DNA of 64,000 bases from Candidatus Bathyarchaeia archaeon (GCA_038882975.1 JAVZNE010000001.1:160001-224000), one strand, 5' to 3'. Positions 5,528 to 60,004 are shown, counted from the first letter of the stretch. Notes: generated from the letters alone by a model not told the origin. Made by a program: numbers and translations.

Positions 5528-6068
5528 AGAACTTTTAAAATTTTGGAAAAAAGAAAATGACAGCGGTGAACTGGAGAGTCTTCCTTCTGATTTTTACTTT
5601 CAAATTGCAGAATATATGAAGAGGTTAAAGGAAGAGGAACGAATGATTGACAGAAAAACGCTCAAAGCAAACCTTTTGAAAATTGAAATGAAAAACGTCG
5701 AACATATGGTACGTCAACTTGCGAAAAAAAGGTATAAAAAGATTGTTCAGCTCTTAACAAAGGACCAAAAAATTCCATTTGACTTGCTGACAACTCACGA
5801 GAGAAATATGTTCGCCGAGAAAAATTTATCGTTTGCTGACGCTTTCAAAAATTTTCTTAACAATCTAATGAGGGGCTCCCTGACCGAAAATGTTGTTGAG
5901 ACTCCCAGAAAAATGGTTGTGGTACGCTTTCTTAAAGAGGTCCCAGCAATTGTTGGCACGGACATGAAAATTTATGGCCCTTTTAAGTGTGAGGATATAG
6001 CATCATTACCTTTTGAAAATGTTAAGATTTTAATCAAACAAAAGCTTGCTGAAAAAATAGACTTTTAG
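5517..6068 (+). CDS. GINS subunit (Gins51/Gins15 type)
   Basis: N-terminal helical A domain (LPSDFY) then C-terminal B domain (VPAIVG.D.KIYGPF); directly after priS. Confidence 0.8.
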   Translation: MVYEELLKFWKKENDSGELESLPSDFYFQIAEYMKRLKEEERMIDRKTLKANLLKIEMKNVEHMVRQLAKKRYKKIVQLLTKDQKIPFDLLTTHERNMFAEKNLSFADAFKNFLNNLMRGSLTENVVETPRKMVVVRFLKEVPAIVGTDMKIYGPFKCEDIASLPFENVKILIKQKLAEKIDF

Positions 6069-6127
6069 AATCTTGTGAAAAAGTTTAAGAGTAAGCTGTT
6101 TTCTTTTATGCGAATCGATGTGATCGA

Positions 6128-6403
6128 ATGAATGTTCCTAAAGAAATTAGAACATATTGCCCTCGATGTAAGGCGCATCAAATCCACACGGTTTCGCTTT
6201 ATAAGGCTGGTAAGCGTAGGGCCTTAGCCAAGGGTGAGCGCCACCATGAGCGCGAAAAGAAGGGTTATGGTGGGCAGAAGTATCCTTTACAGAGGAAGTT
6301 TGCTAAAACTACTAAGAAGCAGACTTTGAAGTTGAAGTGTAAGGTTTGTGGTTATACGAGGCATAAAGAGGGGGTAAGGTTAAGGAAGCTGGTTATAGCC
6401 TAA
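6128..6403 (+). CDS. rpl44e: 50S ribosomal protein L44e (eL42)
   Basis: TYCPRC..H, GYGGQ, KTTKK, CKVC. Confidence 0.97.
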   Translation: MNVPKEIRTYCPRCKAHQIHTVSLYKAGKRRALAKGERHHEREKKGYGGQKYPLQRKFAKTTKKQTLKLKCKVCGYTRHKEGVRLRKLVIA

Positions 6404-6427
6404 AATGATAAGTTGAGGGTAAAGGTT

Positions 6428-6625
6428 ATGGCTGAGTGGGAGAAGCTTATTCCAAGGCCTAAGAGCACTTTTGTTAGGGTTAAATGTTTAAAATGTGGTA
6501 ATGAGCAGATAATTTTCAGCCATGCCGTGAATAAGGTTACGTGTAATGTTTGCGGTGCTGAGTTGGCTGAGCCTTCTGGTGGCAAGGCAGCCATTAAGGG
6601 TGAAGTAGTGGCTGTTTTTGAGTGA
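6428..6625 (+). CDS. rps27e: 30S ribosomal protein S27e
   Basis: [26 protein letters not shown]; start trimmed to ATG 6428. Confidence 0.95.
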
Positions 6626-6637
6626 GATGGTGTCGGA

Positions 6638-7426
6638 ATGGCTTTGAGGAGGCAGGAGTGGCCTGAAGTTGGCGACTTGGTTATAGCTACTGTTGAAACC
6701 GTCACTGATTATGGGGCTTATGTTAGGCTAGACGAGTTTGATAAGAAGGGTCTTCTGCACATTTCAGAGGTTGCCTCTTCGTGGATTAGGAATATAAGGG
6801 ATTTTGTTCGGGAAGGACAGAAGGTTGTTTTGAAGGTTTTGCGGGTTGACGCGGAAAAAGGTCACATAGACCTATCCCTCAGAAGGGTCACGAAAAGAGA
6901 GAAAATTGAGAAGATGCTTTCATGGAAAAAGGAGCGGAAGGCTGAGGCTCTTCTGAGAAGTGTTGCCGAGAAAGCCGGCTTGCCCGTAGAGGAAGCCTAC
7001 GAGAAAGCTGGAGCGCTTATCGAGAAGGAGTATGGCTTGTACGAGGGCTTTGAAAAAGCCGCAAAAGAAGGTGTGGAAGTTTTAACGAAAATAGGTGTTC
7101 CAAAGGAATTGGCTGAAGTTTTTGTTGAAGTTGCAAAGGAAAGAATTCGCTTGCCCACTGTTAAGATTAAAGGGATTGTCGAGCTCCGCTGCTTAAAGCC
7201 CAACGGAGTGGAAATAATCAAGGAAGCTTTTTTGAACGCAAAGAAAACCGAGAAAACCCGAGGCGTGAACATTCGTTTTTATGTTGTGGCGGCGCCAAAA
7301 TATTGCATTGAGGTTTTAGCTGACAATTATAAGTATGCGGAGGCTGTTCTGCAAAGGGTTGCAGAAAACATCGTCTCAAACGTTATTAAGGCTGGCGGGC
7401 AAGGAGTTTATAGAAGGGAGAAATAG
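6638..7426 (+). CDS. eif2a: Translation initiation factor aIF-2 alpha
   Basis: S1 domain (PEVGDLV..LHISE..IDLSLRRV); conserved operon position. Confidence 0.95.
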   Translation: MALRRQEWPEVGDLVIATVETVTDYGAYVRLDEFDKKGLLHISEVASSWIRNIRDFVREGQKVVLKVLRVDAEKGHIDLSLRRVTKREKIEKMLSWKKERKAEALLRSVAEKAGLPVEEAYEKAGALIEKEYGLYEGFEKAAKEGVEVLTKIGVPKELAEVFVEVAKERIRLPTVKIKGIVELRCLKPNGVEIIKEAFLNAKKTEKTRGVNIRFYVVAAPKYCIEVLADNYKYAEAVLQRVAENIVSNVIKAGGQGVYRREK

Positions 7427-9618: not shown

Positions 9619-9758
9619 GACTTAATATCAATACGTTCGCGGAGTCAAAAATTTTGATTTGAATCTCTGAATTGCGTTGGTTTCTGCTACGTACAAATCG
9701 TATTACTTTTCTTTTCCATTTTAAATGCCTTAGCAAAACTAGTCTTGGAGATGAATGT

Positions 9759-10334
9759 ATGCGTCTGTTAAGGAATATCAGAGGACTAAGCGTTGTAGTA
9801 ACAACCTTAATAATCCTAGTGGTTTCGGTGCTCCTTGCAACCATTGTGACGTTTTACGCCATAAATGTTGTGACAACCCGTGTTCAAGAGGAGTCTCTTC
9901 ACCTTAGCAAACAGCACGTCTGGTATAATACAAGTGGTGGTTGGGCTGAGGCAGCCTTGGTTATAATAAATACTGGTGGAAGAGACGTGGTAATCGACAA
10001 AATATCAGTTAGAGGGCAAGAATGCCGATGGTCCAACGTTTACTATTGGAGAACAGACAGCGTCACAGTCTCAGCAGACTTGAATGTGACGAAAGTTAAG
10101 CCGAGCGAAATGACCGACACTATGTGGAGAGAGATATTCGGATATCTAGGTGGTAGTGAAACTTTCCAGTCAGCCTCAAACGATTTGACGTTGAAGTCAG
10201 GATGGACTATAGTCATATACATAGAGAACCCTGACAGCATATCTTCAAAAGATGTTGGTCAAACAGTGGGTATAACGGTTTTCACGGCAAATGCGCAATA
10301 CTACGTTGAAGCCAACGTTGAGGCTGCAGAATAG
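9759..10334 (+). CDS. Archaeal type IV pilin/archaellin-like protein
   Basis: Class III signal peptide MRLLRNIRG|LSVVVTTLIILVVSVLLA; start trimmed to ATG 9759. Confidence 0.8.
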   Translation: MRLLRNIRGLSVVVTTLIILVVSVLLATIVTFYAINVVTTRVQEESLHLSKQHVWYNTSGGWAEAALVIINTGGRDVVIDKISVRGQECRWSNVYYWRTDSVTVSADLNVTKVKPSEMTDTMWREIFGYLGGSETFQSASNDLTLKSGWTIVIYIENPDSISSKDVGQTVGITVFTANAQYYVEANVEAAE

Positions 10335-10373: not shown

Positions 10374-12407
10374 TCAAGTCTTTTTCAAATAGCCTTCCCT
10401 AGGTTCGTATATAGTTCCTTCTCGCAGGAGTTGATTGATTAGGCGTTCAGCCTCGATTCTTGGAATCTTGTATTCTGTTTCAAGCCTGTTGATTAAGGCG
10501 TTTTTGTCAACCATTCCTATTTCTTTCTCCATTTCCGTCAGCACTGAAAGTAGCATTTGTAGCTTGTCTCTGAGGCTTTTGGGTTTTCCAGTCATTATGA
10601 GGTCTATGTCAAATTTGTATGAGGATAGGTCTATTCCAACCTCTTCCAGAGACTTTTTCATTATGTTTATGGCTGCTTCGGCGTCTTCTGCCAAAACTTC
10701 CGTTCTTAGGGCGGCTCTAGCTCTGGCTTCAGCTAGGCGTATAAGCGATTCCAATTGTCTGGCGGTTATCGCAATTGGGGAGCCCTCCGATTCACTTGCT
10801 GAACGCATAGCCAGATAGAAATCCCTTAAACGCTGCAGTGCCTCGCCAGTTAGGACTGGTTTTATCGTCTTTGCATAGCTTACGTATTTTCGCAAAAGTT
10901 CTAGAGATATGGGTGATTCCACGGGGCTTAAGCCTTTACGGTGAATTTCGAGGATGTGCTCCGACATCCTACCGTCTATTTCCTTGTTGGGAACATCCCT
11001 TAACACAAATATTAGGTCAAACCTTGAGAGGATGGTTACTGGAAGTGAAATGTTCTCCGCAATTGTTCGGCGGGATTCATATCTGCCCAAAGCAGGGTTG
11101 GCAGCCGCTAATATAGCTGTTCGCGCGTTAAGAGTTGCCACTATGCCGCCCTTCGCCACAGAAACCGTGTGCTGTTCCATGGCTTCATGGATTGCAACTC
11201 GGTCTTCCGGGCGCATCTTGTCTATCTCGTCTATACAAGCTATTCCCTTATCCGCAAGCACAAGGGCTCCGGCCTCAAGGCTCATTCCACCGCCCTTTTC
11301 GCGTATAACCGCTGCAGTCAAGCCAGCCGCGGTTGTCCCCCTACCAGAAGTGTAAAGTCCTCTAGGTGCAACCCGAGCCACATACTGCAATAGCTGGGAT
11401 TTGGCTGTTCCAGGGTCACCAACCAAAAGAATGTTCAATTCTCCCCTTATTGATATATCTGGAAGCGCCTTAGGAACGCCTCCAAAAAGCAGATACATAA
11501 TCGCCTCTTTGACGTGCTCGTAGCCGTAAATCGAAGGCGCAATAGAGTTTATTATTTTTCTGTGTATCCACGGATCCTTTGCAAGTTCAAGAATCTGCCT
11601 CTCCTCTTCCGGCGATGGAAGTGTTGCTTCAGGTTCTTTGCCTAAAACCTCGATGGAGTTTGTATCTAGGTGTAAGACGAAGGTGCGGAGTTTTCCAACC
11701 TTGGGCATGGTTGGGGCTGCAGCACGAACTATGCCAACGATTGAAACATGGTCGCCTGGTCTAGCCACATCTACAATCTCGCTTCCAACAAGCTTAACAT
11801 GTAATGTGCGTGGAAGCTGTCCCGGCGGGAGATCTTCTGGGCGTTCTTGTATGCGGAGGTCTTGTGAATCTATGAAGGTTGATTCTTCTTGAACGAAGTC
11901 GAAGGGTCCTTTTCGTCTACATGAAGGGTCAGCGCATGCAAAAGGTGCCTTAAGAAACGGGCCTGTTTGATCCACATATGTTATGTTTCCGCATCCTCTG
12001 CATTTGAAGGCGGCCCGCATCACCATTGGGCGGACTGGTGTTGAACGAACAACTATACCTTCAATCATCACCAGCTTTCCAATGTGGGCTGCGCCAAGTT
12101 TCCGCAGAGGCGTTGGCTCCAGAAGCCTAACAACTCGAACAGTTACCTTTTGTTTTTCTGCGTATTCTGGAGCCTCTATGGCTAGCTGGTTTTGGGCAGC
12201 ATTATCCGCGTGCTTTAAGTATTCATCTGGTTTCTCCAGAAGCTTATCCGCAAGTCTATGGTCGAAGGTGAGGATGTCTTCAAACTCAACTACGAGCGAT
12301 GTTTTCCCAGAAACAGCCAGCTGCGAAATCCGTTGACGATATTTCTCCGTTTTAAAAAGCTCTAGAAATCGTTCCTGCGGGTCTATTACTTCCAGCTCTT
12401 CAGTCAT
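10374..12407 (-). CDS. mcm: MCM replicative helicase (no intein)
   Basis: Zn finger, GDPGTAKSQ, IDEIDKM, SRFD, TARQLE. Confidence 0.98.
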   Translation of the reverse strand: MTEELEVIDPQERFLELFKTEKYRQRISQLAVSGKTSLVVEFEDILTFDHRLADKLLEKPDEYLKHADNAAQNQLAIEAPEYAEKQKVTVRVVRLLEPTPLRKLGAAHIGKLVMIEGIVVRSTPVRPMVMRAAFKCRGCGNITYVDQTGPFLKAPFACADPSCRRKGPFDFVQEESTFIDSQDLRIQERPEDLPPGQLPRTLHVKLVGSEIVDVARPGDHVSIVGIVRAAAPTMPKVGKLRTFVLHLDTNSIEVLGKEPEATLPSPEEERQILELAKDPWIHRKIINSIAPSIYGYEHVKEAIMYLLFGGVPKALPDISIRGELNILLVGDPGTAKSQLLQYVARVAPRGLYTSGRGTTAAGLTAAVIREKGGGMSLEAGALVLADKGIACIDEIDKMRPEDRVAIHEAMEQHTVSVAKGGIVATLNARTAILAAANPALGRYESRRTIAENISLPVTILSRFDLIFVLRDVPNKEIDGRMSEHILEIHRKGLSPVESPISLELLRKYVSYAKTIKPVLTGEALQRLRDFYLAMRSASESEGSPIAITARQLESLIRLAEARARAALRTEVLAEDAEAAINIMKKSLEEVGIDLSSYKFDIDLIMTGKPKSLRDKLQMLLSVLTEMEKEIGMVDKNALINRLETEYKIPRIEAERLINQLLREGTIYEPREGYLKKT

Positions 12408-13006
12408 TTCTCCTTCTCCACGCCTCCTTCACTTTCGCTTTCAAGCATTTGAGCCTTCCACCTATTAATAAGCCTATAAATCTGCTCGTAAAGAATTCTC
12501 TCTTCTGCCATAAGGTTCCTTAAAACATGCTCGGTTTGGGCTGGGGCAGAAGCCAAGGAAACAATTTTCTTTAATCTTAAGTTTAAAATGTCCAGCGCCA
12601 ACTGTTTCGCCTTCTCATATTCCCGCATTTTCTCAGGATGCCTAACAGCCTCCTCTCTTAACCCATCAAGGTATCTGCGGAGTTTCGGATAAAAATCCTT
12701 GGGAAGTTCAGAAATTTGCCCAGCTGTTTGGACACGCTCCTTCCAATGAATCTTGTAAAGCTTGGTTGAGTCAAGCAGTTCCTCGCTTCTAAAGCGAACA
12801 ACACCAAACTTTTCAAGCTCTCTGGCAACCCAATACATAACCTCATACTCGTTTCCCTCCTCGAAGGGACCGACAATTAATCCTGCCAGCCTAATTTCCG
12901 GGCAGTTGCGGTTGGCAATAACCTTAACCGGCGAGTTCTCAAACATGAAGTCTAGGGCTTTAATTTTCCCGGAAATGCCCACCTGCAAAGCACTTTCTCC
13001 TTTCAA
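12404..13006 (-). CDS. GINS subunit (Gins23 type)
   Basis: B domain before A domain, LPKDFY, LRLKKIV, EER.LY; overlaps the mcm start. Confidence 0.8.
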   Translation of the reverse strand: MKGESALQVGISGKIKALDFMFENSPVKVIANRNCPEIRLAGLIVGPFEEGNEYEVMYWVARELEKFGVVRFRSEELLDSTKLYKIHWKERVQTAGQISELPKDFYPKLRRYLDGLREEAVRHPEKMREYEKAKQLALDILNLRLKKIVSLASAPAQTEHVLRNLMAEERILYEQIYRLINRWKAQMLESESEGGVEKEK

Positions 13007-13100
13007 CAGACTCTACTACTCTCTTTGGGCGGAGATATAAAAAGTGTAGTCTAGAAAATATGATTGGAGAGTTTAGAATTTTTAGAGTTTCATGGATTTG

Positions 13101-14351
13101 TTAAGGCCACAAGCCCAAAGTCTTTATTGCCTCAGCCACCCGTCCTACTCCCAACATTAGGGCGGCTGTTCGCATGGGTTCCTTCGCATCTTTTGAGGTT
13201 TTGTAGACGTCGTTAAATGCCTTCACCATTTTTCTTTCAAGCTTCTGGTTCACTTCCTCTAAAGTCCAGTGCTCCCTTGTTAAGTTTTGAACCCATTCAA
13301 AGTAGCTTACTGTGACGCCGCCGGAGTTTGCTAATATGTCTGGAATTAAGAACACATCCTTTTCATTGAGCACTTTGTCGGCTTCTGGGGTTGTGGGTCC
13401 GTTGGCTCCCTCGGCTATTATTTTTGCTTTTATGTTGTTGGCGTTTGCTTTTGTAATCTGATTCTCTAATGCAGCGGGCACCAAAATGTCACATTCCAAC
13501 TGCAGCAACTCCTCATTAGTTATGTTCTTGCACCCTTCAAAGTTTAGGACGGAACCTGTTTTCGCCTTATGCTCGTAAACCTTGTAGGGGTTTAATCCTT
13601 CCTTGCAATAGATTCCTCCGCTGGAGTCGCTTACACCTATTATTTTGCATCCCCAATCGTAGGCTATTTTTGCGGCGTTCCATCCCACGCTGCCAAACCC
13701 TTGAACCACAAATCTTGCATCTTTCATTTTTAAACCGAGGATTTTTGCAGCTTCTCTTGCGCAAAACATAACACCAAGAGATGTAGCTTCAGCCCTTCCT
13801 TCAGAACCTCCAACACTTAAAGGTTTTCCAGTAACACATTCTGGGACACTGTAGCCTTTAAATTGGCTGTAAGTGTCCATTATCCAAGCCATTGTTTGGG
13901 CGTCTGTGTAAACGTCCGGCGCCGGCACGTCACGATATGGTCCAATTAGGTCTAAAATTAGGCTTATGTATCGCCTTGTTAGCCTTTCAAGTTCGCCTTT
14001 GGACATTTCCTTTGGGTTACAGCAAACTCCTCCTTTAGCTCCTCCATATGGAATATCAACGACAGCGCATTTCCAAGTCATCCACATGGCAAGGGCGGTA
14101 ACTTCGTCCAAGGTTACGTTTGGGTGGTATCTTATGCCGCCTTTAAAAGGTCCCCTCGCATCGTTGTGCTGAACACGACAGCCTAGGAACGTTTTGATTG
14201 TGCCATCATCCATCCTAATGTTAACAGAAACCATAAGCGTTCTTTTTGGATATTTTAGCATCTCATGCAGTCCGGGGTCAAGCTCAAGTTTTTCTGCGGC
14301 TATTCTTAACTGCTCCAGTGCAGTATCTAGAGCTGAGTAACTCTTTTCCAT
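13101..14351 (-). CDS. gdhA: Glutamate dehydrogenase (Glu/Leu/Phe/Val family)
   Basis: [41 protein letters not shown]. Confidence 0.93.
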   Translation of the reverse strand: MEKSYSALDTALEQLRIAAEKLELDPGLHEMLKYPKRTLMVSVNIRMDDGTIKTFLGCRVQHNDARGPFKGGIRYHPNVTLDEVTALAMWMTWKCAVVDIPYGGAKGGVCCNPKEMSKGELERLTRRYISLILDLIGPYRDVPAPDVYTDAQTMAWIMDTYSQFKGYSVPECVTGKPLSVGGSEGRAEATSLGVMFCAREAAKILGLKMKDARFVVQGFGSVGWNAAKIAYDWGCKIIGVSDSSGGIYCKEGLNPYKVYEHKAKTGSVLNFEGCKNITNEELLQLECDILVPAALENQITKANANNIKAKIIAEGANGPTTPEADKVLNEKDVFLIPDILANSGGVTVSYFEWVQNLTREHWTLEEVNQKLERKMVKAFNDVYKTSKDAKEPMRTAALMLGVGRVAEAIKTLGLWP

Positions 14352-14430
14352 AAGTGTTTACCTCCAAACCTATTATTTTGGGAAGCCTTAAAAGGTTGGC
14401 TGTTAAGCTGGAAGAAAAAGAAGGGAGGGG

Positions 14431-16038
14431 CTAGTCTAAAATTCTTTCTATGGCGTCTGCTTCTGCCTCGTGGGCTAATGGTATACCGGTTACTTTAGCT
14501 GCAAGCTCCGAGAGACTCATTAGGTCGTTTCTGTTGATTAGGTCTAGTCGCCATTTTCTTGCGCCAGCCAATAGCTGCTTTAGCCCAACACCTATGCGGT
14601 CCGTCAAGTAAGTGTATAGGGCTACAGCTTCCCACGGGATTTCCTTGAAACGTTCTCCATACTTTGCCTTTAGCTCTGGAACAGCTATGAAGAACTTCTC
14701 TGGAGTCGCACCAAACTTGTCGGCAAAAGCCTTTGGAAGTTTTCCCTCTTCAGCCAACTGTTTAAAGTAGCTTGCCTTCATCACAGCAGTGAGCGGGGAA
14801 CGGCCCATCAAAACAGCTTTTACGAATGGTCCATCTCCGAAGTTGCTCATGGCTATTGCCTTGAAAATTTGAGTTTCGTTTATGAATCCTCCAGCCATAA
14901 TAATGTCTGGCACGTAGCGGCCTTTCTTCTTCAATATTTGGGCGCACTTAAGCACTATGGCTTCTAGATAAACTGTTGGAATGCCCATCTCATCCATCAT
15001 TGGGACAGGGCTCATGCCTGTGCCGCCACCAGCCCCATCAAAGTATACAGCATCAATCTTTGCCTCAGAAGCTATTTTCAAGGTGTACGCCACTGCTGAT
15101 GGCCTGTAAGCGCCTGTTTTCAAGGTTACATGTTTTGCCCCCTGTTTCCTCAGCCATTCTATGTCCTCTATGACGTTTTTCTCTCCTGGTATGCCAACTC
15201 TGCTGTGCCTTTCAAAGGATTTGAATACGCCGTCTTTGAAGGCTTGCTGTACTGCTGGATCTTCTGGGTCTGGGATTACTATATAGCCCCTTTTCTTTAG
15301 CATTATAGCCCTTTCAAGGTCTCTTACGCGAACTTCGCCTCCTATGGCTTTTGCACCTTGTCCCCACTTTCTCTCTATAACATTGACCTCCAGCTTTGAT
15401 ATGGCGTAAACGTCTACGCCAAGCCTCTGATCTTCAACATTAGTTTGGACGGCTATTTCGCCGTATTCTCCATCCCAGAATTTTCTGAATAGGTCAACTC
15501 TGCGCTTTAGCTCCTTTGAGTAGGTTACTTTGCCGTTTGTAAATTGAGCTTCCGGATCCATGCCGCAGACGTTTTCTCCCACAATTATCATGGCGCCTGA
15601 AAGGGCTGTGCCTATGGCTAAGCCTTCCCAGTTTAGCCTCGCAACATCTGTGGAGCCAAAGGCACCACAGAGTATGGGAACTCTAAGCGGTATGCCGCCA
15701 ACTTTGGTTTCTATGTTCACGTTTGGGAAAAGCGCCAAATCCGGGTCTTCCTTTATTCCATGAGCCTCGAAGAGGCTTGCTTGTATATTGAAATGGGACC
15801 AGTCTAGGCCGAAGTCTTTTAGAGCTCCTGCGGTGCTGAAACCGAATTGTACGGGTTCTGGATAGAGGGCTTCCCTACCTCTGAATGCTGACAAGCCTAT
15901 TTCACACATTATTGGGCAGTCGCGGATGCATATGGGACACATGCCACTTGTGGGACTTGTGTCTTTGACGCGAGTTGTTGTTCCAGTTGTCGATTTCCCG
16001 TTGAGATAGGAGCTATTTCTGAAAACGCGTTCCGTCAT
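14431..16038 (-). CDS. FMN-binding glutamate-synthase-family protein with N-terminal CxxCxxxCxxxC motif
   Basis: KWGQGAK..GGE, DGAGGGTGMSP, AGG FMN-barrel motifs; no glutamine amidotransferase domain. Confidence 0.82.
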   Translation of the reverse strand: MTERVFRNSSYLNGKSTTGTTTRVKDTSPTSGMCPICIRDCPIMCEIGLSAFRGREALYPEPVQFGFSTAGALKDFGLDWSHFNIQASLFEAHGIKEDPDLALFPNVNIETKVGGIPLRVPILCGAFGSTDVARLNWEGLAIGTALSGAMIIVGENVCGMDPEAQFTNGKVTYSKELKRRVDLFRKFWDGEYGEIAVQTNVEDQRLGVDVYAISKLEVNVIERKWGQGAKAIGGEVRVRDLERAIMLKKRGYIVIPDPEDPAVQQAFKDGVFKSFERHSRVGIPGEKNVIEDIEWLRKQGAKHVTLKTGAYRPSAVAYTLKIASEAKIDAVYFDGAGGGTGMSPVPMMDEMGIPTVYLEAIVLKCAQILKKKGRYVPDIIMAGGFINETQIFKAIAMSNFGDGPFVKAVLMGRSPLTAVMKASYFKQLAEEGKLPKAFADKFGATPEKFFIAVPELKAKYGERFKEIPWEAVALYTYLTDRIGVGLKQLLAGARKWRLDLINRNDLMSLSELAAKVTGIPLAHEAEADAIERILD

Positions 16039-16124
16039 ACATTTTTCACCTTTACGTTTGTAAACTGTGTGGAAGGTTTAAAATTCCATTCGCATTTAAA
16101 GGTTATCCTAAAAGTAACAAAAAA

Positions 16125-16141
16125 TGAACATTCTTGTACAT
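16125..16141. promoter_or_regulatory. Two TGWACAT boxes upstream of the gltB-like/gdhA genes
   Basis: TGAACAT at 16125 and TGTACAT at 16135, 10-bp period. Confidence 0.6.
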
Positions 16142-16148
16142 TAGAAGG

Positions 16149-16901
16149 CTAGTGAATCTCTATATTCAACCCATCGACTATGTACTCTCGTCTTGTGTAG
16201 GTTTGGGGATTATATCTTCCACCAGCCTTCTTAATCCATAAGAAGTTCTTATTCTCCTGTCGAGTGAGGTCTATAACCACCTGTGTCATGTGCTCTATTA
16301 AAGCGCAGAACTCTTTGGGATGAGCATTTTTAGCCATAGTCCAGTAGGCGAGAGTTTGATAAGCATATAGCGCCGGGCAAACGTGTCCAAAGAAGGCTTT
16401 AACAGCATCCCTTCCCCAGTTGTGCTCCATTATCGATAAACTGTTAAAAATAAGTCTTGTACCAGGAGTAACAAATTCCCTTTCAATTCTTCCGAAGAAG
16501 TGGTGAAAACGGTCCGGATCCTTTGAGCTTGGAACTTTTCTAATCCAGCTTGGGGCTTTATCATAAAAATCGCTAAATATTAACTCGCCTTGCCCCGCAG
16601 CTTCTGAAAAACAATCTAAAACCAGTAGTTTCTTTTCCCAACCCTCCGGCAAAGTTTTGGTTAAGGGCTCTAATTGAAGCATAATTGCTTGAGGGGGATA
16701 AATAAATTCCAAATATATGACTTGGTTTCCTTCAATTATGCCCTGCCGCATAAAAGAGTATAAGAATTCCCTCGCAAATGTTCCAGATTCAACCTCCCAT
16801 AAAACATTTTCACCTAATAGCAATCCGCCGCCTAGGAGTTTGTCAAGTCCTTTAACCCCTGTTGAGTAGAAAACTTGCTTTTCGTTAGGGTTATTGGACA
16901 A
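16149..16901 (-). CDS. KaiC/RAD55-like RecA-fold protein with degenerate Walker motifs
   Basis: STGVKGLDKLLGGG start; Walker A position reads ESGTFARE; Walker B position reads LIFNSLS. Confidence 0.75.
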   Translation of the reverse strand: MSNNPNEKQVFYSTGVKGLDKLLGGGLLLGENVLWEVESGTFAREFLYSFMRQGIIEGNQVIYLEFIYPPQAIMLQLEPLTKTLPEGWEKKLLVLDCFSEAAGQGELIFSDFYDKAPSWIRKVPSSKDPDRFHHFFGRIEREFVTPGTRLIFNSLSIMEHNWGRDAVKAFFGHVCPALYAYQTLAYWTMAKNAHPKEFCALIEHMTQVVIDLTRQENKNFLWIKKAGGRYNPQTYTRREYIVDGLNIEIH

Positions 16902-16972
16902 TGAAATGCACCGAGGTAAGGTTCACAAGCATCATTAAAAATGTTGCGTCGTCATTTCAGATGTATTAATGG

Positions 16973-17019
16973 TGTACATTTGTGTACATTATGAACATAA
17001 TATTTCTATAGTTGAACAT
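16973..17019. promoter_or_regulatory. Four TGWACAT boxes in the divergent kaiC-like/gdh2 promoter region
   Basis: TGTACAT at 16973 and 16983; TGAACAT at 16992 and 17013. Confidence 0.65.
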
Positions 17020-17057
17020 AAGTCATATTAAGGCTCTAGAATGGGAAGAGGTGGAAA

Positions 17058-18842
17058 ATGAAAATGTTAAACTCTGTGGAGCTTTCCGCAAGAGAGTTGG
17101 GAATGCTTAAGCTGATGGTGGACTTCTTCGCTGAAAAACCTGAGCTGACCGCAAAAATAGAAAGCTACACAACAGCCCACTATGCCCTTCTAACAACGTA
17201 CTCAGAAAACTTTGGAATACCAATCGAAGACTCCCTGAAAGTTTTCGAGGAGCTCCAAAAGAAAATCACGGAAGCTGAATATGTCCATGTTAAGGCACCA
17301 GAGCCCATAAGGAAGCTTCTACCCTTGACTACTGAGGAGTTGAACATGCTGCGAATTCTTGTGGACTATTTCTCTGAAAATCCAAAAATGGCGTCTGCGG
17401 GTTCGATGTTTTCAAGGAAGGAAGACGCCGTTGCCGAAACCTACATGTGGTTTTATGGAAGTAAGGAAGGAAACGGCGAAGTGGCAAGACAAATTCTAAC
17501 AAATCTCGTCGAGAAGCTTCAAACAGCTGTATTTGTAAAAATAGATACTTTGGCGCCCTTAGCTGTTACGCCAAACCCTTACGAAGCCGCCCTTAAGCAG
17601 TTGGACATCGCAGCTGAAAAACTGAAACTTGACCCTGGCATTCATGAAATTTTGAAGCGCCCCATGCGCACCTTAATAGTTAATATTCCAGTGGTTATGG
17701 ATGATGGGAGCATTCAAGTTTTTACGGGTTACCGTGTACAATATAACGATGCATTAGGTCCAACTAAGGGCGGCATAAGATACCACCCAGAGCTAACACT
17801 AAATGAAGTCACGGCACTGGCGGCATGGATGACGTGGAAAACGGCAGTTGTAGGGCTGCCACTAGGAGGAGCCAAAGGCGGAATCAGATGCAATCCCAAA
17901 GAAATGTCCAAAGCTGAATTGGAGCGCCTAACAAGGGGATATGTGCGGGCTATTGCGAAATTTATAGGTCCAAACATTGATGTGCCGGCGCCGGACGTTT
18001 ACACAGACGCCCAAACAATGGCTTGGATAATGGATGAATACAGCGAAATCGTTGGATACCCAGCCTTCGGGGTTGTAACAGGCAAACCTGTAGGCGTTGG
18101 TGGTTCCCGTGGAAGGAGCGAAGCAACTTCAAGAGGCTTAATGTACACGGTGATAGAGGCAGCCAAATACTTAGGGATAAACCTCAAGGGTGCAACTGTA
18201 GCTGTGCAAGGCTATGGAAATGTTGGATACCATGCGGCACGCCTACTGCATGAGGTTGGATGCAAAATCATAGCAGTTTCAGACTCAAAAGGCGGAATAT
18301 ACAACCTCAACGGGCTAGACCCAGAAAAAGTGTTGGAACACAAAAACAGAACAGGCTCGGTGGTTGACTACCCCGAAAGCACATTCATAACAAACGAACA
18401 ACTGTTGGAGCTAGAATGTGACATTCTTGTGCCCGCTGCATTAGAGAACCAGATAACAAAAGCAAACGCCAACAACATAAAAGCAAAAATAATAGCCGAG
18501 GGAGCCAACGGACCCACAACCCCAGAAGCCGACGAAATTCTATTCAAAAAAGGAGTATTTGTAATACCGGACATTCTGGCGAATTCTGGCGGCGTTATTG
18601 TAAGCTACTTTGAACAAGTGCAGAACCAGATGAACTATTATTGGACCGAGGAGGAAGTGCGGAACAAACTGAAAGAAACAATAACTAAGGCTTTCTACGA
18701 TGTCTTAGAACTTTCCAAACAGTATAATGTGAATATGCGCGTAGCCGCCTACATGTTGGCTGTCAAAAGAGTTGCCGACGCCCTCACGGCAAGAAAGGGA
18801 ACAAGACTCGCACCCATTGAATCTTTGCTAGCACGCAGATAG
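17058..18842 (+). CDS. Glutamate dehydrogenase with ~170-aa N-terminal extension
   Basis: Full GDH motifs (GPTKGG, MTWK, GGAKGG, QGYGNVG) from about aa 172; the extension is an internal duplication. Confidence 0.9.
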
Positions 18843-18860
18843 CTCCCTCCTTTTTCTATG

Positions 18861-18894
18861 TGTTCACATGTACATTTTCAGAAAACGTGAACAT
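18861..18894. promoter_or_regulatory. TGWACA(T) boxes upstream of the RHH regulator gene
   Basis: TGTTCA at 18861, TGTACAT at 18869, TGAACAT at 18888, followed by TTTAAAAG. Confidence 0.6.
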
Positions 18895-18939
18895 GTTTAA
18901 AAGCAGCCTTTAAAATAAGTAAACACGACGTGAAGCCTT

Positions 18940-20895
18940 ATGTCTGTTCACCTCCACACAACAATAACAAAAAAGGCAAATGACATACTTGAAGAATTGG
19001 CAAAGACTTATGGCACAAAAAGCCGCGTCCTCGAAAAAGCCCTAGAAACCCTGCTTAGAGTGGATAAAGTTGGCTCATGTGACGACTGCGCCATAAAGGC
19101 TAAAGTAAACGAGCAAACCAAGCTAAGAGAAGCCCTTGACCTAGCCTCAATAAGCAGAAGAAACCTAGACAGCCTTCTAGAAATAGCCATAGGAAATAAA
19201 ACAATTGAGGATTTTATAAAGGAACAAAAAGCAGAAGCAAAAAACACCATAGAAATCCTCAAAAGCTCCATCAGCTGGAAGCCCCCATCAAACTTTAAAG
19301 AATTCCTTATAGTCCTGGAGGAAATTAGAAATCTCACAAACATGTATGAAATACCATCCTACAGCGAAATCGACAATATAGCAATTTTAAGACCAAAAGT
19401 TTTCAAGCGTTTGCCGATAATAGTCGCCTTTCATGTTGCCACAATATTGGAAGGAATAGGGGTCTACTTCGATGTCCGCGTCATGGGCGAGGACATAGCC
19501 ATAAAAATGGTGAGGCCAGAAGTTTACCCCTTAAGGAAGAAAGAATTCGGAGAATTCCTCGAAGAACGAATTGAAAAGGAATTAGCAAATGTTACTCCAG
19601 GATTTTTCAAAAACACTCTTATGCTTGTTGGACCAGCCTTCATGAGCTGGGCAGAAAAACATCTAGAAGAGCCAATATCAGATTTGGGCAATCTTTTAGA
19701 GGATGCCAGAACCGTTTTAGGAGTAGACGAGTTTCCAAAGGAGCCAAGGGATTTTGTAAAGGCCCTATTATCCGCGTTTGTAAAAATGAACTGGTTTAGA
19801 CAGGCAAAGGTTTTAATTGAGAAGGATGAAAACGTCTTGGAGCTTGTTTTCCAAGCTGCATCAGCTTCAATAACGCGAATGTCTGTTGCAGCCTTATCAG
19901 TTATGTTAGCGACTCGAGGGTGGAAAACGCTAAACTATTCAACAGAACACGCAACAGTCAACATGACAATTCAATATGTGGGTGCGGAAGACCAAAGTCT
20001 TCAAGATCAGCTGGCCGAGTTAAGCCTTTTCCAAGTTATAGGCAAACAATTTTTGGATGTTATTCCTGTCCCACGCGACCTTTTCAACTCTTTCGCTTTA
20101 AAAGTCTATGAAAGTGACAAGCGAAAATTTGAGGAGATATATCGTGCAACTGGGACACGCATATCTAATGCTATCCGCATGTTAGCAAGAAATGACCCTG
20201 AAAAAATTAGAAGACTTGCAAAAAACTTCATCCTTAAAAATATTAATGTAACCCAGCCAGATGCTGAGGTTCGCTTCGTGGATGATGAGCACTTTACCAT
20301 AATTTTCAAGCGTATAGACCCTCTCGTAATGAACAGCCAAAGAGTTCTAATAGAATCCATGTTCAAAGAATTGGGTTACGAGGTAACGACAACAGCTTTC
20401 CAAAATCTCTTAAGCTTCAAACTAAAACTTTTGGAAAAGCCGATACTTGCGCCGCTGCCACGGAAAAAACTAATGCAAACATTAATTGAAGGTATGTCAT
20501 GCAACTCTGTAGAGGAGGCATTTGCCATAGAAAAAGAGCAGCTTGATGAACTATTTCCAGAGGACTACCCATGGACAATAAGGGAAGTTGGCGAAAGAAT
20601 CACAGATATGTACAGAGAACTCGGAGTAGAAATTGAAATAGAATATTTTGAGGGGGGTTTCACCCTCAAATACAAAAGCTGCCCATATTACAAACTTGTA
20701 AAAACGGGACAAAAAACGTGGCTTTGCAGCCTCCGCAAAAAAACAATCGAATATATAATCTCACGGGTAAGCCACGGGAAAAAGGGCAAGATAAAAATCA
20801 TAAAGTCCCTACTACAAAACGAGCATCCATGTGAATACGCAATATTTTTAACAGGATTTCTTGAAAGGGAAGAGAAAGCCGAAGCCCAAGAATAG
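18940..20895 (+). CDS. Putative multidomain regulator: N-terminal ribbon-helix-helix plus V4R/MetOD1-like domains
   Basis: SVHLHTTITKKANDILEELAKTYGTKSRVLEKALE is RHH-like; C-terminal SCPY..WLC..HPCEY Cys triad. Confidence 0.55.
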   Translation: MSVHLHTTITKKANDILEELAKTYGTKSRVLEKALETLLRVDKVGSCDDCAIKAKVNEQTKLREALDLASISRRNLDSLLEIAIGNKTIEDFIKEQKAEAKNTIEILKSSISWKPPSNFKEFLIVLEEIRNLTNMYEIPSYSEIDNIAILRPKVFKRLPIIVAFHVATILEGIGVYFDVRVMGEDIAIKMVRPEVYPLRKKEFGEFLEERIEKELANVTPGFFKNTLMLVGPAFMSWAEKHLEEPISDLGNLLEDARTVLGVDEFPKEPRDFVKALLSAFVKMNWFRQAKVLIEKDENVLELVFQAASASITRMSVAALSVMLATRGWKTLNYSTEHATVNMTIQYVGAEDQSLQDQLAELSLFQVIGKQFLDVIPVPRDLFNSFALKVYESDKRKFEEIYRATGTRISNAIRMLARNDPEKIRRLAKNFILKNINVTQPDAEVRFVDDEHFTIIFKRIDPLVMNSQRVLIESMFKELGYEVTTTAFQNLLSFKLKLLEKPILAPLPRKKLMQTLIEGMSCNSVEEAFAIEKEQLDELFPEDYPWTIREVGERITDMYRELGVEIEIEYFEGGFTLKYKSCPYYKLVKTGQKTWLCSLRKKTIEYIISRVSHGKKGKIKIIKSLLQNEHPCEYAIFLTGFLEREEKAEAQE

Positions 20896-20965
20896 CCTTT
20901 TTAGAAAGCTAAACAAGTATTTATTAACTGTTCCTTTATTATGAAAAGGGTAGGAGGCTTTCCAA

Positions 20966-21943
20966 TTGAGTTTTGAGATGTGGGCTGAAAAGTACAGACC
21001 AAAAACATTGGACGAGATGGTGAACCAGAAGGAGATAGTGGAACGCCTTAAAAGCTTCGTTAAAGCCAAAAACGTGCCCCACTGCATTTTCGCCGGACCG
21101 CCCGGCACTGGTAAGACTACGGCGGCTCTTTGTTTGGCAAGAGACCTTTACGGCGAATCCTACCGCGAATATATTATGGAGTTGAACGCCAGCGACGAGA
21201 GGGGCATAGATGTTGTACGGGAAACCGTTAAAACCTTTGCGAGAGTGCGCTCCATCGGTGAGGTTCCATTTAAGATAATGATTTTGGATGAGGCGGATAA
21301 CATGACTGCAGATGCTCAGCAAGCTTTGAGGCGGACTATGGAGCGCTATACGGAAACATGCCGATTCATATTGTGCGCCAATTATAGCGGGAAAATAATA
21401 GAGCCCATACAGTCGCGTTGTGCACCCTTCCGCTTTACATACTTGCCACGCGAGGAACATGATAAGTATTTGCGGTACATAGCAGAAAACGAGGGCGTAA
21501 AACTTCTAAATGATGGGCTGGACGCCATCTACGAGGTTTGTGGCGGAGACCTACGAAGGGCAATAAACACTTTGCAAGCAGCCGCTTCGCTTGGCAAACC
21601 TATAGACGCAAAAATTGTTTATTCAATTGCTGGAAGAGCCAACCCAGCAGACGTGCAGAAAATGATTGAAACAGCCATGAGGGGCGACTTCCTTGAGGCG
21701 CGAAAACAGCTCCGAGAAATGATTCAGAAATATGGAGTGGCTGGAAGCGACATAATCCGCCAAATCCACACAGAAATTTTCAGGGCAGACATTCCAGAAC
21801 CATGGAAAATAAAATTGGCAGACATTGTTGGAGAAATCGATTATAGGCTTGTTGAGGGCGCGGATGAAGAGGTCCAATTAAGCGCACTGCTAGCCAGACT
21901 CGTGGAGGCAGCCTATGAAATTAGGGGCTCAAGAAAGGTGTAA
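20966..21943 (+). CDS. rfcS: Replication factor C small subunit
   Basis: WAEKYRP, GPPGTGKT, ELNASDERG, DEAD, SRC. Confidence 0.97.
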   Translation: MSFEMWAEKYRPKTLDEMVNQKEIVERLKSFVKAKNVPHCIFAGPPGTGKTTAALCLARDLYGESYREYIMELNASDERGIDVVRETVKTFARVRSIGEVPFKIMILDEADNMTADAQQALRRTMERYTETCRFILCANYSGKIIEPIQSRCAPFRFTYLPREEHDKYLRYIAENEGVKLLNDGLDAIYEVCGGDLRRAINTLQAAASLGKPIDAKIVYSIAGRANPADVQKMIETAMRGDFLEARKQLREMIQKYGVAGSDIIRQIHTEIFRADIPEPWKIKLADIVGEIDYRLVEGADEEVQLSALLARLVEAAYEIRGSRKV

Positions 21944-21946
21944 AAT

Positions 21947-23215
21947 GTGTATCAGCCTTGGACCGTTAAGTATAAGCCAAAAAGCTTGAGAGAGGTTGTT
22001 GGAAATCGGGAAGCCATACAAAAGTTTGTTGAATGGGTAAAATCATGGGATAAGGGAATCCCGAAAAAGAGGGCAGCCTTCCTTTATGGTCCGCCAGGTG
22101 TTGGGAAAACTGTTACTGTGGAGGCTTTGGCAAACGATTTTAGAATGGAGTTGGTGGAGAAAAATGCCAGCGACTATAGAACAGAAGAGGCCGTTAAACG
22201 CTTTGCTGGACTTGCATCCCAATATGGCTCATTATTCGGCACGAGAAGGATAATACTATTCGATGAGTTGGACGGTTTAACTGGAACAGCGGACAAGGGC
22301 GGAGTTAAAGCCATAACAGACATAATAAAAACGGCTCAATGTCCAATAGTGCTTATCGCCAACAACGCTTTTGACCCACGGTTTACTAACCTACGCAACT
22401 ACTGCCTCCTAATAGAGTTTAAAAAGCCCCCAACAACCGAAGTTCAAAAACATTTGAAGGCTATATGCCAAAAAGAAGGTATAGACGCGGAGGAAAACGC
22501 CTTAAAGTTTATAGCTCAACGCTCAGAGGGCGACATCCGCTCCGCTGTAACAGACCTCCAAGCTTTGGCGCAGGGCAAGAAACGTCTAAAATATGAGGAT
22601 GTTGCGTGGCTGGGCTTCAGAGACCGTCAAGAGACAATATTCACAGTTTTGAGAATGATTTTGTATGGAAAAACATGCGAAGGAGCTAAACGCGCAGTGA
22701 ACATGGCGGACGTGGACATCGACATGCTCTTTGAATGGATATACGAGAATGTTCCAGCCCATCTAACAGACCCCCACGACTTGGCAACCGCTATGGATGC
22801 CCTTTCAATGGCTGACGTTTACCGTGGAAGAATAAGAAGCACACAAGACTGGAGTTTCATACGCTACGTAATCGACTTCATGACAGCCGGTGTAGCCATG
22901 GCAAGAGTAAACACAAAAACTTCCGGTTGGACTCCATTTCGTTTCCCAGAACGGATACAAGCATTATCTAGGTCTAAGGAGGAACGGGCAATGCAGTTAG
23001 AGATAGGCAGAAAAATTAAGCGCAGATGCCACATATCAGCCATAAGAGCCTTGAAAGAAGTTTTGCCATATCTGCGGATAATCTTTAAAAACAGTGTGGA
23101 GATGGCTGCTGGAATCGCAATGTGGCTTGACCTAAACCGGGAGATGGTTGAGTATTTAGCTGAAAGCAAGGAAAAGGCTGAAGCAATAAACAAGTTTCTG
23201 AGTCAACGCACTTAG
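21947..23215 (+). CDS. rfcL: Replication factor C large subunit
   Basis: W.VKYKP, GPPGVGKT, NASD.R, DELD; follows rfcS. Confidence 0.95.
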   Translation: MYQPWTVKYKPKSLREVVGNREAIQKFVEWVKSWDKGIPKKRAAFLYGPPGVGKTVTVEALANDFRMELVEKNASDYRTEEAVKRFAGLASQYGSLFGTRRIILFDELDGLTGTADKGGVKAITDIIKTAQCPIVLIANNAFDPRFTNLRNYCLLIEFKKPPTTEVQKHLKAICQKEGIDAEENALKFIAQRSEGDIRSAVTDLQALAQGKKRLKYEDVAWLGFRDRQETIFTVLRMILYGKTCEGAKRAVNMADVDIDMLFEWIYENVPAHLTDPHDLATAMDALSMADVYRGRIRSTQDWSFIRYVIDFMTAGVAMARVNTKTSGWTPFRFPERIQALSRSKEERAMQLEIGRKIKRRCHISAIRALKEVLPYLRIIFKNSVEMAAGIAMWLDLNREMVEYLAESKEKAEAINKFLSQRT

Positions 23216-41260: not shown

Positions 41261-41770
41261 ATGAACGGTGCAAATGTTCGATGGTCAGCCCCCAAGGAAG
41301 GTAGCGAAAAGCGGGTCAGAAAAGGGGAAGAATTAAACGAGGTTGACGTGAAAATTTTGAGGGCTTTAACTTTGGATGCGAGGCTTTCCTCAAGGCAGCT
41401 GGCTAAGCAGTGTGGCGTATCCACAAGCACAGCCCTATCAAGAGTAAAGAAACTGGAAGAAGCTGGTATAATAAAGGGGTACGCAGCCCTACTGGACCAT
41501 GAGAAACTTGGCTACGCCCTAACCGTCGTGGTCGAAATAACAGTTTCAAAAGGAAGACTTTTAGAAGTGGAAAGCGAAATTGCAAAACTTCCCAACGTCT
41601 GCTGCGTCTACGACGTAACAGGACTGATAGACGCCATAGTCATAGCCAAATTCAAAAACAGAGAAGAACTAAGCAAATTTGCAAAACGCTTGTTAGCAAT
41701 GCCCTACGTAGAAAGAACAAACACCCACGTAGTGCTAACAACAATAAAAGAAGATTTCAGAATAATCTAA
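41261..41770 (+). CDS. Lrp/AsnC family regulator divergent from glnA (start uncertain)
   Basis: D.KIL..L..DAR HTH, RVKKLEE.GII.GY, YDVTG..D. Confidence 0.9.
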   Translation: MNGANVRWSAPKEGSEKRVRKGEELNEVDVKILRALTLDARLSSRQLAKQCGVSTSTALSRVKKLEEAGIIKGYAALLDHEKLGYALTVVVEITVSKGRLLEVESEIAKLPNVCCVYDVTGLIDAIVIAKFKNREELSKFAKRLLAMPYVERTNTHVVLTTIKEDFRII

Positions 41771-58085: not shown

Positions 58086-58227
58086 ACAGTTTACTCTCCG
58101 CAGAGGTGTTTTGACATTAACATTAAAAACTTTTTTGTGCAGATTCAAAAATCGATTTCGCTTTGTAGAATACGTTCCAATATATAATATCCATTAAATA
58201 AGAAGTTATGGTTGAAGGGAGACAAAG

Positions 58228-58467: not shown

Positions 58468-58490
58468 TAAAGAAAGGTGGCAGATGTTCG

Positions 58491-58919: not shown

Positions 58920-59015
58920 CTCCCTTTCAGTTTTGTACTGGTTTGTTTAAAAGTTTTGCCAAAAGATGCGAAACTCTGCAAGAAAAATGGGAAATTTATG
59001 GCTTTCAATGTTAGG

Positions 59016-59495: not shown

Positions 59496-59545
59496 TTCAG
59501 TTTCCCACTTATATTTGAACTGGATGGACTATTTTAATGTCTATG

Positions 59546-59986: not shown

Positions 59987-60004
59987 ATTACATCCACTAC
60001 AAGC

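Follow-up and report, generated by a model that had tools for sequence, protein, structure and literature searches.

The 64,000-nucleotide stretch analysed here, from Candidatus Bathyarchaeia archaeon (GCA_038882975.1, JAVZNE010000001.1:160001-224000; hereafter the window), carries five genes that an earlier note, made from the sequence alone, had placed in two divergent arms between the replication genes gins/mcm and rfc. On the minus strand lie the gene for a canonical glutamate dehydrogenase (GDH) by Pfam, GDH1 (13101-14351, 416 aa), downstream of the gene for a flavin mononucleotide (FMN) protein (14431-16038, 535 aa, Pfam Glu_synthase), and the gene for a KaiC-like protein that we call iKaiC (16149-16901, 250 aa, KaiC/PAXNEB-like). 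On the plus strand lie a second gene with Pfam GDH matches, GDH2 (17058-18842, 594 aa), and the gene for a candidate regulator, REG (18940-20895, 651 aa), which has no family match at E<=1e-3 in Pfam or NCBIfam. The two arms meet at 16902-17057. The open reading frame (ORF) coordinates of all five genes were confirmed exactly, and Pfam identifies the flanks as MCM/GINS (10374-13006, minus strand) and RFC-S/RFC-L (20966-23215, plus strand). Our subject is a unit formed by three of these genes, iKaiC, GDH2 and REG, together with a short sequence box repeated in the promoters of the locus.

The earlier note had pointed to one motif common to three intergenic regions, and the counts bear this out. 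TGWACAT matches the window 23 times against an expected 13.57 +/- 3.64, a count that none of 100 shuffled sequences reached, and nine of the 23 matches (one palindromic site being counted on both strands among them) fall inside the three spacers 16039-16148, 16902-17057 and 18843-18939, which total 363 bp, or 0.6% of the window. The tandem TGWACAT-N3-TGWACAT is found exactly twice in the window, at 16125-16141 and 16973-16989; when up to two mismatches are allowed, five matches are found versus 1.49 expected, with one of 100 shuffles reaching five. The extended consensus approximates the palindrome ATGWACAT.

Relatives of REG served to locate related loci. A word-indexed protein collection held 485 of them at E<=1e-3; the 120 listed are 73-96% identical, and the 44 of these that have names are all called 'hypothetical protein' in Bathyarchaeia/Bathyarchaeota-labelled records. 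A scan of one genome per species, queried with a 14-sequence REG alignment, yielded 105 pattern matches and 91 confirmed relatives, the best 80 of which correspond to 76 distinct loci, with +/-10 kb of sequence available around REG (1.28 Mb in total). Most of these are from Bathyarchaeia, many of them closely related to the window (70-97% protein identity), and 12 of the 76 carry Asgard labels (Hermod-, Prometh- and Thorarchaeota; REG identity 50-60%). When the window proteins were mapped onto the loci by tblastn, REG was found in 76/76, GDH2 in 71 (the remaining five have less than 160 nt upstream), the N-terminal extension of GDH2 in 65, iKaiC in 64 (the other 12 have less than 1.6 kb upstream), the FMN protein in 43, RFC-S in 42, and GINS and MCM in 38 each.

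Where at least 2.2 kb is available upstream of REG, the triad of iKaiC, GDH2 and REG is co-located without exception (64 of 64 loci, nine of them Asgard), and 63 of these 64 keep the order iKaiC(-) <> GDH2(+) > REG(+); the remaining locus, L065, is rearranged to GDH2(-) <> iKaiC(+) > REG(+). The FMN and GDH1 genes behave differently. Both are missing from all nine Asgard loci whose upstream sequence reaches 5.6 kb or more, as well as from six fully flanked Bathyarchaeia loci (L037, L038, L039, L045, L049 and L054). Elsewhere they vary in position: both are relocated downstream of REG in L055, the FMN gene is inverted and GDH1 missing in L051 and L069, FMN is present without GDH1 in L021 and L022, and the two lie 2.8 kb apart in L041. 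Because the triad is constant while the FMN-GDH1 pair varies, the conserved unit is three genes, iKaiC, extended GDH2 and REG, and not five; the FMN-GDH1 pair is a lineage-specific accessory found in part of Bathyarchaeia only. The earlier idea of a self-contained regulatory unit thus survives in that the unit is conserved, co-regulated and self-contained, and fails as to its membership. The replication-gene neighbourhood is rearranged in L021, L022, L041, L043 and L056 and absent in the Asgard loci, and we therefore regard these neighbours as incidental. The genes flanking the triad differ completely between Bathyarchaeia and Asgard loci, which argues that the linkage of the three is not inherited synteny of a bigger block.

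These gene contents bear on the circuit proposed in the earlier note, in which a switch between two GDH isoenzymes was the centre and the FMN protein, the KaiC-like protein and the regulator were its partners. The two GDH genes do stand side by side in the window and in 32 loci, and they are distinct old paralogues: in a midpoint-rooted tree of 96 rows, from which rows with stops or partial matches were excluded, GDH2 forms a clade (100/100) separate from the GDH1 clade (100/100). Against such a switch, the triad persists in the nine Asgard and six Bathyarchaeia loci that have neither GDH1 nor FMN, and the FMN gene occurs without an adjacent GDH1 in five loci (L021, L022, L041, L051 and L069). 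In the same tree, the Asgard GDH2 proteins form one group (100/100) beside those of the Bathyarchaeia loci L051 and L052 (97/77, an unstarred branch). Gene conversion between GDH1 and GDH2 was considered and set aside, the inverted repeats being merely 82-86% complementary, as in ordinary paralogy.

The motif is likewise present in the orthologous promoters, in two phyla, where the hexamer TG[AT]ACA is kept amid diverging sequence. Neither of two outcomes that the earlier note would have counted as refuting its proposal, a scattering of the genes in other genomes and a loss of the motif from orthologous promoters, was thus observed. At least two such sites are found in 63 of 63 spacers between iKaiC and GDH2 (23.9 sites/kb), in 70 of 70 between GDH2 and REG (18.5 sites/kb; both orientations are counted here, and L032 has one forward-orientation site only) and in 36 of 37 upstream of the FMN gene (14.9 sites/kb). 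In the control spacers of the same loci, two or more sites occur in 0/32 between GDH1 and FMN (0.3 sites/kb), 1/32 between GINS and GDH1 (0.9 sites/kb) and 0/34 between REG and RFC (0.3 sites/kb), and the remainder of the 1.28 Mb has 1.09 sites/kb. The spacing of neighbouring sites is also restricted: 9, 10, 20, 21 or 30 bp in 146 of 149 pairs of the divergent spacer, 9, 20 or 21 bp in 72 of 80 pairs before REG, and 9 or 10 bp in all 37 pairs before FMN. Outside the three regions there are 35 close site pairs, 11 of which are the same promoters in loci skipped by the coordinate filters, the others being scattered, mainly in coding sequence; a tandem recurring in other intergenic regions was not seen within the +/-10 kb of the loci. 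On this ground we regard the regulon as self-contained within that distance.

Could the arrangement mean nothing functional, the synteny being inherited and the motif either common to promoters in general or repeated by chance? The make-up of the sample, mainly Bathyarchaeia and with many loci close to the window, would allow it. It sits badly with the triad and boxes kept in Asgard loci at 50-54% REG identity despite unrelated flanks, with control promoters of the same loci in which the motif is lacking, with the strict helical phasing, and with the tandem having moved along with the relocated FMN gene in L055, L069 and L042. We therefore hold this explanation to be very improbable, and the boxes to be, with high confidence, the functional operator of the conserved iKaiC-extended GDH-REG module.

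The placement of the boxes differs from promoter to promoter. In the divergent iKaiC/GDH2 region, operator O1 (16973-17019) consists of TGWACAT boxes at 16973, 16983, 16992 and 17013; three of these lie upstream and the one at 17013 downstream of a TATA-like element, TTTCTATA (17003-17010), in the GDH2 promoter. All 63 orthologous loci, those of Asgard archaea among them, keep this layout, and the median distance from the start of the last O1 box to the GDH2 start codon is 40 nt across loci. On the iKaiC side, the same boxes lie 32-64 nt upstream of a minus-strand element at 16934-16942 (reading ATTAAAAAT on the plus strand) that would serve as its TATA element, and a ttaaaaa/taaaaa block is retained at this position in Bathyarchaeia loci. 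Operator O2 (18862-18894), in the REG promoter, comprises TGTTCA at 18862, the palindrome ATGTACAT at 18868-18875 and TGAACAT at 18888-18894, the last box abutting a TATA-like TTTAAAAG (18896-18903); an oligo-T tract lies after the GDH2 stop codon, before the O2 boxes, and in the Asgard REG promoters boxes stand on both sides of a ATTAATAA element. Operator O3 (16125-16141), upstream of the FMN gene, is the tandem TGAACAT-N3-TGTACAT, followed some 25 nt downstream by a TATA-like ATTTAAA (16094-16100). It lies 87-103 nt before the FMN start codon in the window (median 94 nt across loci), and the tandem with its 10-bp spacing is present in 36/37 loci.

From these positions we infer a repressor-type layout at the GDH2 promoter and an activator-type position at the FMN promoter, and the boxes at the TATA-like element of REG suggest that REG may be autoregulated. 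That GDH2 and the FMN arm would be regulated in opposite directions, as the box positions by themselves would have it, is a tentative proposal to which we give less than even credence. Opposite control of GDH2 and the FMN-GDH1 arm would favour the two-GDH switch; the boxes stand at the FMN promoter, however, and the spacer between GDH1 and FMN has two or more sites in none of 32 loci. The core triad contains GDH2 alone, GDH1 is accessory and boxless, and the unit is not built around two GDHs; we consider the five-gene switch quite unlikely; at most, switching would be possible where the accessory arm is present, through read-through from the FMN promoter.

GDH2 consists of an N-terminal extension (17058-17570, residues 1-171), which the earlier note did not mention and which matches no Pfam family, and a catalytic core (17571-18842) of the hexameric-type Glu/Leu/Phe/Val dehydrogenases. 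The core matches ELFV_dehydrog_N at 198.6 bits (E 3.4e-59) and ELFV_dehydrog at 292.9 bits (E 2.7e-87), GDH1 scoring 194.2 and 281.9 bits, all above the cut-offs of 25.3 and 23.4 bits; against the NCBIfam equivalog GdhA_Arch (NF040817), GDH1 scores 566.6 and GDH2 631.8 bits, both under the 750-bit cut-off. PDB entry 1bvu matches GDH2 residues 172-579 (E 1.6e-162), and closely related solved GDHs all begin aligning at residue 172. Residues K237, K261 and K273 (in KGG and GGxKGG), which we take to be the catalytic and substrate lysines, are invariant along with other core residues in 32 GDH2 orthologues, and a pairwise alignment finds the same KGG and GGxKGG motifs in GDH1, which is 66% identical to the GDH2 core. 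Judged by these retained active-site residues, GDH2 is predicted to be catalytically intact. At GDH2 residues 516-521 (18603-18620) the sequence reads FEQVQN versus FEWVQN in GDH1 and the closest solved GDH; the Q is in the majority but not invariant among the 32 orthologues. Public records name GDH2 'Glu/Leu/Phe/Val dehydrogenase', and in its 90% cluster one record gives a length of 430 aa, so much shorter than the 594-aa ORF that most or all of the N-terminal domain must be missing from it.

An exhaustive phmmer search of 1.84 billion representatives with the extension returned 12 proteins at E<=1e-3: one full-length representative of the GDH family (593 aa), nine pieces of 45-170 aa at 51-87% identity, one 98-aa piece at 60% identity, and one weak match in a 1326-aa protein (E 3.6e-4). 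The extension is exclusive to this GDH family. Two short forms that might have been free-standing copies (P0122 and P0123) are most likely fragments, since they lie on contigs of 943-2876 nt. The AlphaFold2 (AF2) model of the extension is good (predicted local distance difference test, pLDDT, 83.3; predicted template modelling score, pTM, 0.82) and has two tandem beta-alpha4-beta repeats, for which Foldseek found nothing in the PDB at E<=1e-3. A DNA-binding tandem winged helix was tried and rejected: the best Foldseek match was YceH-like (probability 0.82, TM 0.27), MarR-type matches had probabilities below 0.25, and the acidic character of the extension (isoelectric point, pI, 5.08) also speaks against it.

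The third protein of the triad besides GDH2 and REG, iKaiC, is named for its likeness to an inactivated KaiC, a term used in PMC5847659. It matches Pfam PAXNEB (Elp4-like) at 40.6 bits (cut-off 28) and KaiC (PF06745) at 23.9 bits, under the cut-off of 26.6; PDB KaiC and SSO2452 match it at E ~1e-4, and the nearest Atlas clusters are named RAD55/KaiC. In all 32 orthologues aligned, the place of the Walker A motif GxxxxGK[ST] is taken by E-[VY]-E-[ST]-G-T-F-x-x-E-F, and GK[ST] is absent. Because of this absence we file iKaiC as an inactivated KaiC/RAD55-like RecA-fold protein, a predicted pseudo-ATPase, rather than as an ATPase. Its mean column identity across the 32 orthologues is 73%, and C97, H133, H173, C175, H194 and H204 are invariant.

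REG has a basic N-terminal beta-alpha-alpha segment, a CxxC motif, a long alpha/beta middle and a C-terminal domain resembling MetOD1 and V4R. In the AF2 monomer, residues 1-10 are unstructured and helices span 11-24 and 29-41. Residues 1-55 (pI 8.66, the sole basic N-terminus among the triad proteins) are the best conserved part, with 82% mean column identity versus 69%, and H4, H6, T7, T8 and the CxxC cysteines C47 and C50 are invariant. At the other end, C581, C596 and C631 together with H629 are invariant in 34 sequences. The MetOD1 profile (PF18546) matches REG at 17.4 bits (E 0.0046), under its 23.8-bit cut-off, and 21 of 34 orthologues at E<=0.1, all below threshold (best 1.7e-4). According to PMC5847659, MetOD1 is related to H-NOB and V4R and has three conserved cysteines in common with V4R, a feature that REG has as well. 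Foldseek matches of this domain to H-NOX and TRAPP Bet3-type proteins have probabilities of 0.95-0.99, weak E-values (0.026-0.1) and target TM scores of 0.3-0.4; a match to the large GDH 7jsr is of low TM and meaningless. Free-standing relatives of the C-terminal domain were sought among shorter proteins, and the only finds were high-identity fragments of the same family (72 of 93 candidates). A sequence search of the PDB with REG yielded nothing useful. PF27313 (AF_0136_C) is assigned in the Atlas to 10-14% of members of two REG-like clusters, and a literature search for AF_0136 returned unrelated accession-like strings only.

As to the N-terminus, the weak matches include Pfam RHH_3 (E 0.22 for the window protein, 0.069 for the best of 34 orthologues), PHROG CopG-like and HicB-like families (E 0.08-0.22, one or two of 26 members) and an Atlas lead to RHH_1 at 0.82. 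In a PDB profile search the natural-protein matches were two DNA ligase chains only (best E 0.0047), the top rank going to a designed repeat protein (E 0.0013, no stretch reported). Of the label of a ribbon-helix-helix (RHH)-V4R regulator, given to REG by the earlier note, the V4R part has sub-threshold matches, and the RHH part, with no significant match, is not confirmed.

We favour REG as the protein that binds the ATGWACAT boxes because it is locally encoded, its own promoter carries boxes, and its basic, invariant N-terminus pairs with an invariant operator; judged from these sequence features, this is probable by a modest measure. The wider model, in which REG would be a transcription factor that controls its own gene and senses through a C-terminal V4R/MetOD1-like Cys3 domain, we regard as evenly balanced between right and wrong. 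Several observations weigh against these views. The AF2 model of REG is moderate (pLDDT 70.9, pTM 0.34), no DNA-binding family matches REG significantly (all RHH matches have E above 0.03), and the PDB profile search with its N-terminus found no RHH protein. An alpha-beta-beta pattern in the model that looked like four homologous V4R-like repeats was rejected, hhalign giving probabilities of 0.4-4.6%. Among the promoters, the region upstream of FMN in L051 has no recognisable box or tandem, the spacer before REG in L065 has no full box, and no boxes belong to GDH1 itself. Lastly, the positions of the TATA elements, transcription factor B recognition elements (BRE) and transcription starts were read by eye, and their roles are those we assign to them.

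A different reading would have the boxes bound by a regulator encoded elsewhere, with iKaiC and REG acting not as transcription factors but as regulatory or scaffolding subunits in a large assembly with GDH2, docked through its extension and controlling the enzyme allosterically. No DNA-binding domain is confirmed in REG, a large protein most of which does not look like a DNA binder; the GDH extension occurs in this setting alone; and the 73% column identity of iKaiC is what would be expected of a protein with many contacts. There are also GDHs with regulatory partner subunits elsewhere, the Thermus GdhA/GdhB hetero-complex being an example. Within the 1.28 Mb of loci, however, the boxes are found only at this module, including at the promoter of REG itself, and this is typical of a locally encoded autoregulator. 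We judge the subunit reading to be unlikely, and add that it and a role of REG as transcription factor are not mutually exclusive.

If REG is the factor, its N-terminal beta-alpha-alpha segment would bind the 8-bp palindromic boxes as dimers; with box spacings at multiples of ~10 bp, adjacent dimers would come to lie on one side of the helix. The Cys3(His) domain, and possibly the CxxC too, might receive the signal, which could be a metal, a redox state or a small molecule. Bound at the GDH2 and REG promoters, where the boxes bracket or abut TATA/BRE, REG would lower the expression of extended GDH and of itself; bound upstream of BRE/TATA at the FMN promoter, it would raise that of the FMN protein, and GDH1, where present, would rise with it by read-through. 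The boxes upstream of the iKaiC TATA-like element would likewise be in an activator position. The GDH extension and iKaiC may be the protein-protein input parts of the system, GDH being a 'trigger enzyme'; such a signalling role, to which their exclusive co-occurrence points, is possible and somewhat doubtful.

A still more integrated arrangement can be imagined, in which extended GDH, pseudo-KaiC and REG would form one signalling complex that reads out GDH flux as transcription. The N-terminal domain of GDH would dock on iKaiC and/or REG, the Cys-rich V4R-like domain of REG would add a redox or metal input, and the complex would toggle ATGWACAT between repression (GDH2, REG) and activation (FMN gene); cassette and operator may have been moved together by gene transfer between Bathyarchaeia and Hermod-/Thor-type Asgard archaea. 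We think this unlikely. If true, it would amount to an archaeal-specific, enzyme-embedded regulator of the glutamate/2-oxoglutarate node.

Several known systems resemble parts of the module. In Bacillus subtilis, the RocG/GudB-GltC 'trigger enzyme' system controls gltAB, and the likeness lies in a GDH tied to a transcription factor of a glutamate-synthase-type gene, the factor and the tie being candidates here, so that the state of the enzyme could pass into transcription. GltC is LysR-type, whereas REG has no LysR or helix-turn-helix match, and the Bacillus GDH has neither a dedicated extra domain nor a KaiC-like partner. The action of the B. subtilis GDH on GltC is a precedent for an enzyme as co-regulator (PMC6978683). 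The module shares with the archaeal NrpR system an archaeal regulator (REG being a candidate) and palindromic operators at nitrogen-assimilation promoters. NrpR itself is a nitrogen repressor with 2-oxoglutarate as effector that acts at palindromic operators, alongside PII proteins. As the earlier note had stated, NrpR, NrpA and PII are not in the cluster (none of the five products matches these families in Pfam or NCBIfam); the operator differs, and the glutamine synthetase of the window is boxless.

In its promoter logic the module recalls position-dependent dual regulators of archaea such as TrmBL1, where a single kind of operator lies over TATA or downstream of it at some promoters and upstream of BRE/TATA at others, which implies that one protein both represses and activates; TrmBL1 has no homology to REG, and the direction of regulation proposed here is read from positions only. 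Thermus GdhA/GdhB, a GDH hetero-complex with a regulatory subunit, and the large 180-kDa GDHs, which carry long N-terminal regions, have in common with GDH2 a catalytic module with extra regulatory protein mass; the GDH2 extension differs in being 171 residues long with no relative detected outside the family and no fold match, and both GDH1 and GDH2 of the window keep their catalytic motifs. The C-terminal ~100 residues of REG recall the MetOD1/V4R/H-NOB sensor domains, which include those of the phenol sensors PoxR and MopR (PMC5847659), by the 21/34 MetOD1 matches, the three invariant cysteines and the H-NOX and Bet3-type matches. The differences are that the REG matches are below cut-off, that the architectures given in that text (MetOD1, REC-MetOD1 and REC-PAS-MetOD1, in methanogens) do not list an N-terminal DNA-binding-like segment with ~500 residues of alpha/beta architecture, and that REG occurs in Bathyarchaeia and Asgard. 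Proteins of the iKaiC/KaiC-like ATPase kind have been proposed as archaeal signalling hubs, and iKaiC resembles them in its single-domain RecA/KaiC fold, its divergent P-loop and its position beside a sensor/regulator gene; linkage with GDH and REG was not found in the texts searched.

In its working, the module would come nearest to a metabolic regulon that is autoregulated locally and may include a trigger enzyme; it has no regulator family in common with B. subtilis GDH-GltC, NrpR or PII. It combines a candidate transcription factor, an operator and metabolic targets in an unusual, enzyme-embedded composition. A full-text literature search, with supplements and Makarova et al. 2017 outside its scope, found no description of this cluster, and the module points to an undescribed control system for glutamate metabolism.

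The FMN protein, an accessory member of the regulon, had been called GOGAT-like, after glutamate synthase (GOGAT). Its Glu_synthase (PF01645) match is above cut-off (42.6 versus 20.4 bits), but covers profile positions 188-296 of 369 only (109/369), and no amidotransferase, GXGXG domain or GltD-type partner was found among the five genes or the window neighbours. The protein has an N-terminal CxxCxxxCxxxC motif and no NCBIfam or PDB sequence match. Its family is very large (7999 of 8000 scored candidates pass E<=1e-3), with relatives named 'glutamate synthase-related' or 'FMN-binding glutamate synthase family protein'. Near the triad, GltD/NfnB-like and PyrK-like genes are confined to L051, L065 and the Asgard loci; L051 and L065 carry NfnAB/GltD-like and MvhD-type genes.

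The surroundings of the triad vary in other ways. In the Asgard loci, a PyrK/NfnA-like Fe-S flavoprotein gene follows iKaiC, and REG is followed by a gene for a ~935-aa fusion of an NDP-forming acyl-CoA-synthetase-like region and a GNAT acetyltransferase (L058:12032-15417, L067:12062-15443, L072:12060-15454), presumably a Pat-like architecture, and then by one for inorganic pyrophosphatase. In L037, one of the loci without FMN and GDH1, an ammonium transporter gene (5622-6869) lies directly beside iKaiC, which hints at a connection to nitrogen. In L011 (12018-14881) and L023 (12093-14971) a pair of genes for TldD/PmbA metallopeptidases separates REG and RFC-S, and L016 and L066 have a similar gap of ~3 kb. 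L014 and L070 are two triad loci (REG 79% and 78% identical to that of the window) on contigs of one genome bin, which could be two copies or a mixed bin.

Elsewhere in the window, a glutamine synthetase gene (39717-41120, minus strand) diverges from a gene for an Lrp/AsnC-type regulator (41261-41770, plus strand); a scan of the window found no TGWACAT box in the spacer between them, and the glutamine synthetase therefore appears to be outside the regulon. At 57804-62469, genes for a rubrerythrin/EncFtn-like protein, ferritin, flavodoxin, Fe/Mn superoxide dismutase, OsmC and peroxiredoxin are clustered, and this oxidative-stress run adjoins a second Lrp/AsnC regulator gene. A 220-aa ORF at 9672-10334 has a weak match to the pilin UpsA (NCBIfam E 3.6e-5, far under cut-off) and overlaps a 107-aa ORF on the opposite strand. 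No known RNA elements were detected within 12800-21200 at E<=0.1.

Little is known of gene regulation in Bathyarchaeia and Asgard archaea, and the module offers a compact, complete and testable regulon: a candidate regulator, an operator, target promoters and a plausible metabolic input. With an operator shared by two phyla, a single series of in-vitro experiments on binding, footprinting, transcription and enzyme activity would serve for many lineages that are not in culture. The work also delimits a subfamily of GDHs whose extra domain had not been annotated before, and it places an inactivated KaiC-like protein and a 'hypothetical' family of 650-residue proteins, REG, in a functional setting. 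The node concerned, glutamate/2-oxoglutarate, is where carbon and nitrogen metabolism meet in sediment archaea that ferment peptides.

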